The notes: generated from the letters alone by a model not told the origin. DNA of 64,000 nucleotides from Deltaproteobacteria bacterium (GCA_016283195.1 JAEEML010000167.1:688-64687); one strand, 5' to 3'. Shown: positions 1 through 4,724, counted from the first letter of the stretch. Made by a program: numbers and translations.

Positions 1-140
1 CTTTTGGTTAGCATGCGGCGCTGCCCGTTTTTATGCGACACTAGTTCTTGACTTTACTCTTTTTTTCTTTTTCGGGGAAAACCTCCGCTACTTTAGTTAT
101 CCATCACCTCACAAAATATATGTAAATTCAATTATATATG

Positions 141-170
141 CCCCTCTCCATTTTTACAAATAGAGAGGGG
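141..170. repeat. 30-bp imperfect palindrome CCCCTCTCCATTTTTACAAATAGAGAGGGG (hairpin element, copy 1)
   Basis: The two arms CCCCTCTC and GAGAGGGG pair, and so do ATTT and AAAT. Near-identical copies occur at 357-385, 4477-4506 and 5644-5675. Confidence 0.7.
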
Positions 171-238
171 CCCCATGTGAAAAACAGGCTCTAATGGCAG
201 TGGTGCGGTGGGGCGGCTGCCCGGCCTGGGCTTGGTGG

Positions 239-301
239 CTATTTGCCTTCGATGGTGGCGACCTCTTCGGGGGTTAGGGCGTAGAGTTGATAGAGCAGGG
301 C
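239..301 (-). pseudogene. Relic of a second Type IIG RM gene 3' end (encodes ...ALLYQLYALTPEEVATIEGK*)
   Basis: The reverse-complement translation matches the C-terminus of the adjacent 1224-aa enzyme (…LVYALYGLTEEEIATIEGK*). The flanking nucleotides ggtggctatttgccttcgatggtggcga (235-262) are near-identical to those at 437-464. No upstream ORF is attached to it. Confidence 0.7.
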
Positions 302-317
302 ATTTATTTGCCAGGGG

Positions 318-385
318 CCCTCACCCCGACAAGTACCGAAAATTATTAGCATCTCGCCCCTCTCCATTTTTACAAATAGAGAGGG
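318..385. repeat. Inverted copy of the ~50-bp repeat unit plus hairpin element copy 2
   Basis: ccctcaccccgacaagtaccgaaaattattagcatctcgcccctctccatttttacaaatagagaggg is the reverse complement of the unit that repeats in tandem at 4495-4665. Confidence 0.7.
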
Positions 386-441
386 CTCATCTATGTGAAT
401 TTATATGTGTTTCTAAAGTATCATGAGCTCTGGCGGGGTGG

Positions 442-3400
442 TTATTTGCCTTCGATGGTGGCGATCTCCTCCTCTGTCAGCCCGTAGAGCGCATAAACCA
501 GCCGGTCTATCTCCTGCTCAAGTGCGGAGGTGTCAGCTTTGGGGTCGGCTTTCTTGGCGGCGAGAATTTGGTCAACAATGTTGATGATATTTTTTTCTGT
601 GATTTCTGGAACAACTTTGGGAAGAGGAATGGCAAGCAATGGTTCTTTGTCAACTTGATAGTTTTTTCCTTGCATTTTCCCTTTGTTTTTCAGCCAGAAA
701 GCAACAAGTTTTGAGTTGAGAAGTCCTGTAAGAAATTTCATATTCCAGCGTGATGTCTGAATGACATTCACTGCCATCATAACGTAAGTTGCAGATTCAC
801 AATAAACAAATGTTGGTACAATACATTTTCTAACCGATAATATTTTTGCCCCATTTTTAAAGAATTTTTCATCACGAGCCCAATGCAAATGATAATATTC
901 GATTCTTCCAATTCGATTTTCTCGCCGTTGCTCCATTATTTCTTTATATTTCATTAAGTGATTTTTGAGATTCGGAGCATCGTCTTTCCAATTTGATTTT
1001 GTTATATAGAGAATACATTTATCATTATGTTCATTGAGAAAATAACGTTCCATTTGATAAGGCTCGTATAGCGGTTTTATATATTTTTTTTCGGCAGAAT
1101 CTAGGTTAATAAATTTGTTCTCATCTACAATAAATACGCCTTCACCAATTTCTGCAGACGAATTTCTTAAAAGTTTGATATTGCGAGAATTTACGACATC
1201 AGGATTTGGTACAATTCCTTGTGCAACTTCATCTTCAGTAAGATATATTTTGTCATTCGCTATTTTGTCAAAAATAGATTCGTTATCACTAAATGTTAGA
1301 AGTTTTTCCTGAAAGTTTCCTCGTATTATTTCTGGATTCGAATATTTTGTTTTTGGGGCACTTCGCTTTTCAAGCAGTGCAAACATATCTTCTTTTACTG
1401 AATCAGCTAGTAATACTCTATGATCAAAGAAGTATCCATCCTCTTTATTGTTGCGCTCAAAAAGCATTATCATTGTTTGGATGTCAGCGTTTTCAAAAAT
1501 CATATAGGTATTAAAATCGACCAGTTGCTTGATTTTTGTATCCTCAATAACCTTTATACGCATAAGTTTTGCACCAGCGCTTGTTGTCCAATTATTTTGA
1601 GCTATGAAGCAAAGCAAACCATTTTTGTGGGTTAAATCTATTCCTTGACAGGCAAAACCGTACCATAAATCCATTTTGCCAATATAGTATGGACTTAATT
1701 CTCTAAAACCATTAAAAGCGGACCTGTTTGCATATTCTTTAATATATGGAGGATTTCCAATCACTACATCAAATCCCAGAAATTTACCATTATTATCCAA
1801 AAGTTCCGGAAACTCGATCATCCACTCAAATGAGTTTTTATAAATATCATCGGTAAAAACGCGTTTGTTATGCTCTTCGTCAAAGAGGTCAAGCTGTGCT
1901 GTTTGGTGAATTTCACCTTTTAAGCGCTCAATTTGTTTGTTGACTTCTTTTTTATTCTCTTTGTTGTTCTCATTCTTGTATTTTTTAACTGCCGCCTTGT
2001 AATCTTTAATAATATCAGCTGTTTTTTGCGGATTGCCTTTTTGCAAAATCGAGTTTCCAACTTCCACGCTATATTTGCTTATAAGGCTGTTGCCGCATTT
2101 AATATTTATATCAATATTCGGTAATGTTTCCAGCTCCTTATAGCTGCTTTCTTTGGTGTAATAGGCGTTTTTTAGTAGCTCAATCCAGAGGCGCAAGCGG
2201 CAGATATAAACACTGTTGGGGTTTATATCCACGCCAAAGAGGCAGTTTTCAATGATAGTTAGCTTTTCTTTAAAGATAGTCTCTTGGAAGCGCTGTAATG
2301 TGCTGTTTGGCTTCCCATCGCTTTCGATGCGATAAGTTATTTGTTGGTTTTTTTCATCGAGCATTATGAGTTCATCGCCGTCGATTTCTATTTTCAGCTC
2401 TCTCTTGGAAATGAAATTTCCTGCGCTATCGCAGAGCAGGCCAAGGTAGGATTTTAAATAGAGCATTCTATTTAAAACAGAGACTAAAAAGTGGCCGGAA
2501 CCAACAGCCGGGTCACAGATTTTCAGCGAATTGAAAACGCTATTTGCCGCTTCAAGAGCCTCTTTTAAATCTGTGGCACCATCACCATCTAAGTGCCGAT
2601 TGAGTCTTACTCGCAACTCTTCAATATCTTTAGCTTTCCACTTGTATTGCTCATTGAATTTGCTAACTACCGCCCGATCAATCGCCTCTTTGGCCATATA
2701 AGAAGTTATAAAGCCGGGAGTGAAGAAAGATCCATCTTTATAGCCGTTTATGCGCTCAAAAATGAGACCCATGACCGAGGCATTAATGAGCGTTTTGTTA
2801 TCGCTGGCGATATCCTCTTTCTTCTCGCTGGCAAAGTTGTAGGCATCCAAAAAAGCCATGATGTAATCTAAAAGCTTTATTTGTGGCGGAACATTTTCAG
2901 CGTTATTCTTCCGCAAAACGCTTTTTTGATAGAGAGTTATATCTTCGTTGCAAATGCTTTGGATGCTTACGTGGTATTTTAGCTCTTCCTGTGATTTTTC
3001 AAAAAGCGAGCTATTGAGATACGGCACATTCTCATAACCGGCGTCACGATTCTCTTTTTGCCCTAAAACTTTAAAGAAAAGGTCGTTTAGTTTTCTAAAA
3101 CTATCAACACTTTTACTGGTAAAAAACTGGTAGTTTTTATCGTGATTATGGTAAGTTAGCTGTTGTGCTTCTACCAATTTTATGAATAGTAGGCGGTTGA
3201 CCCAAGTTAGTACCAGGCTAAGCGCAACCTCTTCTCGCTTTTGCTCGTCTCTCAGTTCTTCAAAATCGTCCAGAGCCGAAAGCGCCTGCTTCCATAGCGA
3301 ATTTTCCAGCTCATAGTTGAATTTGATGAGCTTTTTTTGCCCGTCTTTTACTTGCTTTAGGCCCATTATGTAGAGGAGCTCGGCGTAAAAATCCTCATCC

Positions 3401-4116: not shown

Positions 4117-4196
4117 GCCACCTCGCTCGCGCTAGCAGCGCAATTTTTAAGCTCAAATTTTCTGGAATAATTGCTTAAATTTCTTGAAAAAAACTC

Positions 4197-4225
4197 TTGA
4201 CTTACAGAATTTGGCTTTTCATAAT
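4197..4225 (+). promoter_or_regulatory. sigma70-like hexamers TTGACT-17 nt-CATAAT on the plus strand, pointing into the TTGC repeat
   Basis: The -35 and -10 hexamers are read directly with a 17-nt spacer. Transcription from here would run away from the RM gene, through the SSR and into the hairpin array. This is a hexamer match only. Confidence 0.25.
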
Positions 4226-4292
4226 TGCTTGCTTGCTTGCTTGCTTGCTTGCTTGCTTGCTTGCTTGCTTGCTTGCTTGCTTGCTTGCTTGC
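4225..4292. repeat. Tetranucleotide simple-sequence repeat (TTGC)17, which reads (GCAA)17 on the RM coding strand
   Basis: 68 nt of perfect TTGC units, counted directly. It lies 109-176 bp upstream of the RM start codon. Confidence 0.95.
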
Positions 4293-4476
4293 TTGGGGTG
4301 AACAGATTCATTGATTTAGCTCCATCTAACAAAATTAATGTTGCCAGCTAACCCATCGCGGACCAGCCATGCCAAACTGAGCCGGAACCCTAGCAGGTTT
4401 TTTGCCACTTTGGAATTACTTTTTTGTAATAACTAGCTGGTATCACGCCATGTAAAAAAATGCCTTCCAGAGGAGC

Positions 4477-4506
4477 CCCTCTCTATTTGTAAAAATGGAG
4501 AGGGGC
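4477..4506. repeat. Hairpin palindrome copy 3 (CCCCTCTCTATTTGTAAAAATGGAGAGGGG), inverted relative to copies 1 and 2
   Basis: Direct sequence match to the reverse complement of 141-170. Confidence 0.7.
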
Positions 4507-4665
4507 AAGAAGCTAATAAAATCCACTACTTGTCGGGGTGAGGGAAGGAAAAAATGGAGAGGGGCAAGAAGCTAATAAAATCCACTACTTGTCGGGGTGA
4601 GGGAAAATGGAGAGGGGCGAGATGCTAATAAAATCCAGTACTTGTCGTGGTGAGGGCGGTAAAAA
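4495..4665. repeat. Tandem array of three 53-59-bp direct repeats (atggagaggggcaagaagctaataaaatccactacttgtcggggtgaggg…)
   Basis: Units lie at 4495-4544, 4554-4603 and 4607-4656, and the third is diverged. Each unit contains a GGGGCAAG…CTTGtCGGGG stem-loop. The array is contiguous, without spacers. Confidence 0.85.
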
Positions 4666-4724
4666 TAGCGGCGAGAAGCTTGCGGAGATAGATGTTAATG
4701 CTGAAACTATTAATGTTTTGGCAC

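Follow-up and report, generated by a model that had tools for sequence, protein, structure and literature searches.

BoxC-like structured repeats around a Type IIG restriction-modification gene in a variable stretch of an uncultured bacterial genome

Results

Anatomy of the locus

The left end (positions 1-6688) of a 64,000-nucleotide stretch from Deltaproteobacteria bacterium (GCA_016283195.1 JAEEML010000167.1:688-64687), referred to here as the window, carries a single-gene restriction-modification (RM) system of Type IIG surrounded by copies of a hairpin-containing repeat. Analysis of the repeat indicates that it is a variant of the BoxC/PIT/TM "intrastrand triplex motif" class, and the DNA around it bears marks of gene replacement. 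The layout is real, and mostly a fresh example of known things. From left to right the repeats, the RM gene and the elements associated with it are:

141-170, minus strand: hairpin H1 with a 13-bp stem and a 4-nt loop, in the G-rich T.G-wobble form on this strand; DNA fold -11.6 kcal/mol, z -5.9
242-310, minus strand: remnant of an older and GC-richer Type IIG gene, comprising its final 23 codons (..INALLYQLYALTPEEVATIEGK); stop codon at 239-241
317-386, minus strand: left long unit, comprising C-block CCCTCACCCC (318-327), a 29-nt linker and hairpin H2 (357-386)
442-4116, minus strand: RM open reading frame (ORF) of 1224 codons, likely ATG at 4113
442-4113, minus strand: Type IIG RM gene, 1223 amino acids (aa)
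4114-4224, minus strand: 111-nt leader, from the tract to the RM start codon, with GAGG 7 nt before the ATG
4219-4311, minus strand: leader ORF, 30 aa as assembled; GGAG stands 8 nt before its ATG (4311), and the frame crosses the tract to a stop codon at 4219-4221
4225-4295, minus strand: perfect tetranucleotide tract, (GCAA)17.75 on the gene strand or (TTGC)17.8, 100% matches, score 142, 112 nt upstream of the ATG and followed by 180 nt of unassigned sequence
4476-4505, plus strand: hairpin H3, first element of the right array; -14.3 kcal/mol, z -3.9
4491-4666, plus strand: three tandem long units, each AAAATGGAGAGGGG, a 29-nt linker and GGGGTGAGGG; start-to-start spacing 59 and 53 nt
5645-5689, plus strand: compact copy, CCCCCTCTC, AT-extended loop, GAGAGGGGG, CTA, GGGGGTGAGG; nearest to the canonical BoxC/TM form

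An earlier reading of the stretch, made by a model from the sequence alone (the sequence-only reading), had proposed that an RM ORF at 442-4116 lies between inverted copies of one repeat, and both parts of this description proved accurate. An ORF scan returned the reading frame, and a repeat finder returned inverted arms at 318-385 and 4477-4544 (68 nt, 90% complementary). The left unit pairs best with the outermost, third unit on the right (317-370 against 4604-4657, 54 nt, 91%), the second right unit reaching 87%. By length and identity, both for the 68-nt arms (90%) and for the 54-nt outer pair (91%), the copies qualify as terminal inverted repeats. The three-unit array seen on the right was recovered by Tandem Repeats Finder (4491-4666, period 59, 3.1 copies), with G-blocks at 4535-4544, 4594-4603 and 4647-4656. 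The 30-nt palindromic hairpin is present at 141, 357, 4476 and 5645 with 0-2 mismatches, where the chance expectation is 0.00 (100 shuffles); the copies at 141 and 5645 are the additional hairpins that had been placed outside the inverted flanks. The CCCTCACCCC block occurs four times in the window, against 0 expected in shuffled sequence.

H3 (4476) is the exact reverse complement of H1 (141), including a single asymmetric T.G / C.A position and the loop, and the units are therefore true inverted repeats. H3 is likewise the reverse complement of H2, asymmetric mismatch and loop included, which excludes a direct target duplication of a palindromic insertion site. The G-rich strand changes from minus in the two left copies to plus in those on the right, so that the units point outward from the RM gene; read on the minus strand, the left unit runs hairpin, linker, GGGGTGAGGG. 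The 30-nt hairpins fold strongly (z -3.0 to -5.9). A further stem-loop that had been proposed within each unit (GGGGCAAG...CTTGtCGGGG) did not stand, as its fold reaches only -1.9 kcal/mol (z +0.24), a stability matched by 115 of 200 shuffled sequences. Rfam gave no match to a known structured RNA at the gathering threshold or at E values up to 1. Where block 3 of one array unit meets block 2 of the next, the junctions are mirror repeats of 24-30 nt (4535-4564 and 4594-4617; 92-93% purine), a sequence type classically associated with H-DNA.

Every family copy in the window is intergenic: H1 sits 68 nt downstream of the stop codon of the remnant gene, and the copy at 5645 adjoins the stop codon of a decayed Fib_succ_major gene fragment. 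The hairpin family is confined to 141-5689: neither a relaxed search nor a scan for hairpins of any sequence with a 10-bp stem found it in the other 58 kb. The probability that four sites placed at random in a 64-kb window span no more than 5.5 kb is ~0.002.

Three minor features of the repeats were also observed. The word CACCTCAC occurs in 100-140, 28 nt left of H1, approximately where a long unit would have its C-block, and may mark a decayed copy of that unit. A 42-aa ORF (239-367, minus strand) has its ATG within the left repeat unit (MERGEMLIIFGTCRGEG) and continues in frame into the C-terminus of the remnant, and a short MERGKKLIKSTTCRGEG ORF begins in each right-hand unit. These ORFs probably arise by chance, and no protein matches to them were found.

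The RM gene

The RM protein contains the Pfam domains DUF7149, DUF7814, Eco57I methylase and TaqI_C (specificity), and matches the PADLOC REase_MTase_IIG model (E 2.7e-231). Its N-terminal nuclease motif reads D73-x13-E87-x-K89, with D73, E87 and K89 invariant in 61 homologues, and the methyltransferase motifs DPAVGSG (534) and NPPY (787) are present. The predicted protein thus combines in one chain the PD-(D/E)xK nuclease, N6-adenine methyltransferase motifs I and IV and target recognition that define Type IIG enzymes, and the gene appears to be an intact one, encoding a predicted single-chain RM enzyme. The best homologue among 5.8 billion proteins shares 46% identity; there was no close match among solved structures, the best covering the methyltransferase half only (E 2.5e-10).

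The ORF had been judged by eye to be AT-rich, and calculation agrees: its GC content is 37.3%, against 48.6% for 7001-64000. Positions 1-6688 as a whole have 40% GC and the rest of the window 49%. Within the gene, the last 180 nt at the 3' end (442-620) are 49% GC and the remainder 37%, a step that suggests a mosaic join in the conserved C-terminal region, possibly with an earlier resident allele.

The repeat is a variant of the BoxC/PIT/TM class

BoxC/PIT/triplex-motif repeats have been known since the 1990s, and to our knowledge they have no agreed function; a search of one literature library turned up no later work on BoxC function. The published Escherichia coli consensus, TM_ECO, is CCCTCNCCC-N3-6-GGGNGAGGG-N3-GGGNGAGGG (Holder et al. 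2015, PMC4666352), and ITxF allows loops of 1-6 nt. That study lists 23 copies in E. coli K-12, for example CCCTCTCCCTGTGGGAGAGGGCCGGGGTGAGGGC, and 3610 copies across 262 proteobacterial genomes (PMC4666352). In E. coli the BoxC/PIT elements are intergenic and showed activity neither as promoters nor as terminators; the loci that hold them vary far more among strains than control loci do, and the genes flanking them show no functional bias (PMC4666352).

The window repeat is built likewise: a C-block is followed by the complementary G-block and then by a G-block in mirror order (GGGGTGAGG). Its general form is a 13-bp hairpin, CCCCTCTC(Y)ATTT / AAAT(R)GAGAGGGG, with the mirror G-block GGGGTGAGG 3 or 29 nt further on. 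Because the third block mirrors the second, a single strand could form a purine-motif triplex. In a three-block test allowing only G.G, A.A and T.A triads, the 5645 copy (GGAGAGGGGG, CTA, GGGGGTGAGG) scored 10/10; right units 1 and 2 scored 9/9 and unit 3 scored 8/9, with a second loop of 29 nt. The mirroring of block 2 by block 3 includes a single T.A triad, which is also the pattern of the E. coli TM_ECO elements (TM_ECO no. 1). By its sequence, then, the repeat is a variant of the BoxC/PIT/TM class and not a strict member. The G-rich strand has triplex, H-DNA or G-quadruplex potential, and for that of BoxC a switch between G-quadruplex and hairpin forms has also been described (PMC5100583). 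The earlier suggestion of a REP/MITE-like family is upheld insofar as this is a structured intergenic repeat class (BoxC/PIT/TM); the MITE part fails, there being no target duplication.

Occurrence of the repeat elsewhere

The hairpin pattern was scanned over 185,579 species genomes, one per species, the source organism's own genome not being among them. It gave 13 hits, all in metagenome-assembled genomes of Nomurabacteria/Paceibacteria. Each hit has the arrangement CCTCACCCC, spacer, CCCCTCTCCATTT, loop, AAATGGAGAGGGG, spacer, GGGGTGAGG, and so contains the same two word pairs as the window. At these loci (L001-L013), BoxC-like nested palindromes (CCTCACCCC..CCCCTCTCC..GGAGAGGGG..GGGGTGAGG) are dispersed at 1-3 per 8 kb, and some other copies there are near-canonical, e.g. 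CCCCCTCTCCTTTCAGGAGAGGGTTGGGGTGAGG. Example copies are:

L010:918-985
L005:5378-5450
L013:7284-7320

The Paceibacteria elements lie between housekeeping genes (dnaA, paired adenylate kinase, cytidylate kinase and purine-synthesis amidotransferase genes), several of the copies sitting between tandem adenylate kinase genes. On sequence grounds the BoxC core reaches well beyond the Proteobacteria reported in 2015. A linker-specific pattern found no genuine copy of the unit in JGI metagenomes, giving three chance matches, all inside genes. Six-frame peptides of the unit, used as protein queries to catch ORFs called over copies, matched nothing at E values up to 10, and the hairpin pattern was absent from viral contigs. 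When the 4.6-kb segment was searched, plasmids gave only short matches in methylase genes and phages gave none; short hits to methyltransferase motifs being all that was obtained, a known plasmid or phage element is excluded.

Three of the closest homologues of the RM gene could be compared together with their loci. They have housekeeping or toxin-antitoxin neighbours, and these three loci contain no such repeats, no long inverted repeats and no comparable long simple-sequence tract. The sequence-only reading had implied a special tie of the repeats to the defence gene. The local clustering at 141-5689 speaks for such a tie; it is weakened because the same core lies between housekeeping genes elsewhere and because the closest homologues lack such flanks. 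The repeats thus do not look like cargo of the RM gene.

By tetranucleotide signature the RM gene resembles the rest of the window with r 0.62, within the range of native 3.7-kb chunks (0.66 +/- 0.04, range 0.59-0.74), and its match to the Paceibacteria loci (r 0.37) is no better than that of native chunks (0.36). A chimeric contig or a very recent transfer from a Paceibacteria-type donor is therefore unlikely, the tetranucleotide signature supporting neither.

A remnant gene and a variable region

We searched the window, with the RM gene masked, by tblastn with 120 homologues, and only 242-310 matched, corresponding to the extreme C-terminus of the family. The best match of this remnant, which the sequence-only reading had not recorded, is the C-terminus of homologue P0095 (70% over 23 residues, E 2e-5), and many homologues match the same spot. 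A direct repeat relates 229-298 to 432-501 (76%), and the larger segment 130-320, comprising hairpin, spacer and gene 3' end, aligns with 346-520 at 77% identity; a module of gene end plus hairpin is therefore present twice. In this duplicated module the hairpin is identical at 30/30 positions and the coding part at 76%, for which the neutral-divergence probability is ~0.003. Identity of the hairpin amid diverged flanks implies that it has been maintained, homogenised or re-inserted.

The remnant breaks off at the outer end of the left unit, at most 7 nt away from it. To the right of the array, the variable region continues with the following features:

4725-6688, minus strand: rest of the variable region; homology to the closest relative begins only at 6689
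4725-5342, minus strand: 205-aa ORF, no family match, hydrophobic N-terminus; followed by a 300-nt AT-rich spacer and the compact repeat copy
5690-5992 and 6421-6531, minus strand: decayed Fib_succ_major C-terminal fragments, both ending ..VRCVRD

The fragment at 5690-5992 matches the C-terminal part of the Fib_succ_major domain, and that at 6421-6531 was assigned from the shared ending alone. Both appear to be the remains of pseudogenes, lying between the repeat cluster and the chloride-channel gene. The closest relative, L014, is a 3.5-kb contig whose chloride-channel protein is 88% identical; it aligns with the window only from 6689 rightward. In L014 the chloride-channel gene is followed directly by a FabA-like gene, which in the window lies 21 kb further on (6689-8590 and 29552-30444), so that gene order differs on both sides of the chloride-channel gene. 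With the truncated remnant ending no more than 7 nt from a repeat and the relative sharing no homology left of 6689, the earlier proposal of an insertion scar gains support. Together with the pseudogene fragments these features make the locus variable in the manner of the BoxC class, as judged against one relative only. In L014 itself, a GC-rich hairpin (GCGCCTCCCTCTGTGGGGGAGGAGCGC) lies at 130-200, some 500-580 nt upstream of the chloride-channel gene, with AGGAGGTGAGG 30 nt on; it may be a diverged element of the same type.

We also scanned 43 ORFs, nearly all those of at least 180 aa in the 64-kb window, against protein families. Ordinary chromosomal or cellular gene families account for 32 of the 43, the other 11 having no Pfam match. 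In agreement with the sequence-only reading, no transposase or integrase was found among them, nor any match to the Y1_Tnp/RAYT family. No target-site duplication was detected at the ends of the repeat-bounded segment, where only G-runs of 3-4 nt within the repeat itself match, and no tRNA gene was found as a possible integration site.

A tetranucleotide tract in a leader ORF

The (GCAA)17.75 tract and the leader ORF that contains it, neither of which the sequence-only reading had mentioned, lie upstream of the RM gene inside the inverted repeats. In the assembled phase the leader ORF stops right after the tract, 106 nt short of the RM start. One additional unit would move the stop 8 codons later. 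With one unit fewer, or two more, the frame runs 37 codons further to give 64 or 68 aa, and its TGA (4115-4113) overlaps the RM ATG (4113-4111) as TGATG. Since such an overlap is a standard coupling arrangement, one repeat phase in three would couple translation of the leader and the enzyme. By this frame arithmetic, RM expression is probably phase-variable via the tract, with translational coupling as the candidate mechanism. Contingency repeats of this unit (CAAG = GCAA) are known from Haemophilus influenzae, among them that of lex2A, and one such tract lies 58 bp upstream of an adenine methylase gene (PMC2651432).

The best sigma-70-like match nearby (4197-4225, plus strand; TTGACT, 17 nt, CATAAT) faces away from the gene and adjoins the tract; RNA initiated there would run antisense to the leader ORF and on to H3 in its wobble-perfect form. 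The number of promoter-like sites is not above that in shuffled sequence.

Discussion

We have analysed an RM locus whose surroundings combine BoxC-like repeats, the end of an older RM gene and a broken gene order. Our preferred reading, which we hold with slightly better than even confidence, is that the BoxC-like repeats make this stretch prone to recombination, that the present RM gene replaced an older homologue, and that the array arose by slippage between G-blocks. It starts from what is directly observed, namely the anatomy, the resemblance to BoxC/TM, the local clustering, the remnant gene, the break in gene order, the intact motifs and the leader frame arithmetic. Under this reading positions 1-6688 would be a recombination-prone variable stretch that serves as a slot for RM genes, and the repeats would be local copies of a BoxC/PIT/TM-type structured repeat, acting neither as transposon ends nor as an invertible switch. 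We infer that non-B DNA structures form in the cell; such structured elements would stall or break replication and recombine with one another, causing the surrounding DNA to turn over. The repeats may in this way have caused the rearrangements, the present AT-rich gene taking the place of an older Type IIG gene of higher GC content, of which only the last 23 codons and the downstream hairpin survive. Slippage between G-blocks would have amplified the unit on the right side, and the (GCAA)n tract in the leader ORF would, in the one of three repeat-number phases that reads to the TGA overlapping the ATG, place the enzyme under translational coupling.

Several observations weigh against this reading. 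The strict TM_ECO consensus fails at the window repeat, in which loop 1 is 14 nt (4 nt counting the AT stem) and loop 2 has the canonical 3 nt only at 5645, being 29 nt in 4/5 units. A stable BoxC triplex was not found in vivo and no mechanism of instability was given (PMC4666352), and the causal step from repeats to rearrangement is borrowed from variability statistics in E. coli. The copy count is that of 64 kb of the source genome, and the sole close relative is a 3.5-kb contig. The old gene breaks off where the inverted repeat has its outer end, as might also be expected of a discrete inserted element, and the host-like signature of the RM gene indicates that its acquisition was not recent, or was from a relative. 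As regards the leader, a predicted RNA fold that partly pairs the ribosome-binding site was not significant (z -1.2), and a promoter scan did not locate a promoter upstream of the RM gene.

Such a discrete element would be a non-autonomous cassette (317-4657) with the long units as 68-nt terminal inverted repeats, mobilised by an enzyme encoded elsewhere and inserted into the older RM gene. We regard this as unlikely. The 90% match of the 68-nt repeats, the closer likeness of the left unit to the outermost right unit, the cut in the old gene within 7 nt of the left repeat end and the enclosure of RM gene, leader and tract all suit it; however, the ends lack a target-site duplication, neither a transposase nor an integrase was matched among the scanned ORFs of the 64 kb, the far side lacks the 5' part of the interrupted gene, and H1 and the 5645 copy lie outside the supposed element. 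The absence of genuine copies from JGI metagenomes, viral contigs, plasmids and phages, and of such ends from the homologue loci, tells in the same direction. An integron cassette with attC sites is excluded by the flip in orientation between left and right and by the lack of an integrase match, a RAYT-REP system by the lack of a Y1_Tnp match in any scanned ORF, and a CRISPR-like array by the absence of spacers. A different form of mobility, in which the BoxC-like units serve a cassette-exchange system as its recognised ends or recombination sites, whole RM genes being swapped in and out of a fixed slot and the coupled tract leader adding a second layer of control, strikes us as quite unlikely. 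The inversion or excision that the sequence-only reading had envisaged found no support. Inverted repeats of 54-68 nt do flank the RM gene, and a switch that flips the 4.1-kb segment between them to control the gene can be imagined, but the ORF family scan revealed no invertase or recombinase gene nearby. Moreover, inversion would alter nothing obvious because the start codon, ribosome-binding site, leader ORF and tract are all internal to the repeats and so cannot be uncoupled from the gene by flipping, and the tract already provides a switch; we give the invertible segment almost no credence.

A role at the level of RNA, with the hairpins acting as transcript 3'-end stabilisers, processing sites or insulators as REP does in E. 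coli, is rather doubtful, despite several attractions. Such a role, and not instability of the DNA, would then account for the siting of the copies after stop codons. Each copy lies just downstream of the end of a minus-strand gene (remnant and H1, RM gene and H2, 205-aa ORF and array, Fib_succ fragment and 5645). In the RM transcript H1 and H2 are perfectly paired, counting a G.U wobble, around a GUAA loop, and give strong predicted RNA folds (z -4.2), and the hairpin sequence has been kept although its flanks diverged. Against this, the orientation relative to the upstream gene is inconstant, the two right copies appearing in minus-strand transcripts in the C.A-mismatch form, and the mirror G-block and tandem array are left unexplained. 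The terminator or insulator function suggested earlier is weak for similar reasons: neither a T-run in the DNA nor the corresponding U-tract follows any hairpin, a terminator scan found no intrinsic terminator at the hairpins save a weak 5-bp hit partly overlapping H3, and BoxC/PIT elements lack promoter and terminator activity in E. coli (PMC4666352). Finally, the AT-rich left end could have been misjoined through the shared repeat from another organism, for example an AT-rich Paceibacteria member. The region does lie at the end of the window with GC 9 points lower, and the exact hairpin variant was found only in Paceibacteria/Nomurabacteria genomes. We consider such an assembly artefact very unlikely nonetheless, given the native tetranucleotide signature described above, repeats of 30-68 nt that fall below typical read length, and a remnant end and RM gene 3' end that are GC-rich like the host.

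Current views are not overturned by this locus, and its value is that of a worked example with testable predictions. The best published lead on BoxC function is a statistical link to hypervariable E. coli loci; the locus described here is a concrete example outside the Proteobacteria, in which a gene replacement has its left junction at the outer end of a repeat. It also displays an amplified array that creates mirror repeats of the H-DNA type and a hairpin that is identical amid diverged surroundings. With the Paceibacteria copies, one core recurs across very distant phyla, for which a shared binding factor or a strong structural constraint would be needed. Were the cassette-exchange interpretation true, a defined role could be assigned to the BoxC/PIT/triplex-motif class for the first time. 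As for the leader, a (GCAA)n ORF that closes with TGATG at the start codon of the enzyme offers a neat and testable scheme by which an uncultured bacterium could make restriction phase-variable.

Comparison with known systems

Each part of the locus has a known counterpart: the enzyme is of Type IIG, the repeats are of the BoxC/triplex-motif kind, the tetranucleotide tract is of the contingency type, and replacement of genes in variable regions is familiar as well. The predicted enzyme resembles the MmeI/Eco57I-type Type IIG proteins in its single polypeptide, PD-ExK nuclease motif, gamma-class N6-adenine methyltransferase and TaqI_C target recognition, and differs from them in sequence, sharing no more than 46% identity with any of 5.8 billion proteins. 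Replacement of RM genes at variable chromosomal sites has been described for Helicobacter and others. As there, a single RM gene of atypical composition is bounded by repeats and lies beside the remnant of a homologue; here, however, the bounding repeats are inverted and structured, and are not long direct target duplications. Like REP/BIME sequences, the window repeats are short GC-rich hairpins at gene 3' ends that alternate in orientation, are sometimes clustered and are kept uniform, but the window contains no REP-type sequence or RAYT gene, and a mirror G-block is not a feature of REP.

The tract resembles the contingency loci of H. influenzae (mod; (CAAG)32 before an adenine methylase gene; lex2A; PMC2651432, PMC1557822) in being a long perfect CAAG repeat 5' of a methylase-type gene. 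In contrast to those loci, it lies in a separate leader ORF and not in the frame of the enzyme, the stop codon of this ORF overlaps the start codon in one phase, and the host is an uncultured environmental bacterium. The leader-ORF design is new.

The repeat has the three-block design of BoxC/PIT/TM_ECO, in which a C-rich block is joined by its G-rich complement and by a G/T block in mirror order, and the core words are nearly equal (CCCTCTCC / GGAGAGGG / GGGTGAGG); it also shares with that class an intergenic location, occurrence in inverted pairs, loci that differ between relatives and the lack of a linked mobility gene. It departs from that class in that an ATTT/AAAT stem lengthens the hairpin and brings loop 1 to 14 nt instead of 3-6, in that 4/5 units have a 29-nt second loop in place of 3 nt, and in its three-unit tandem array. 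Unlike the proteobacterial elements, it belongs to a host outside the proteobacteria, and all copies seen in the 64-kb window lie within 5.6 kb. The variant form of the repeat, with its AT-extended hairpin, 29-nt linker and tandem array, and the presence of the BoxC core in this lineage and in Paceibacteria are new.

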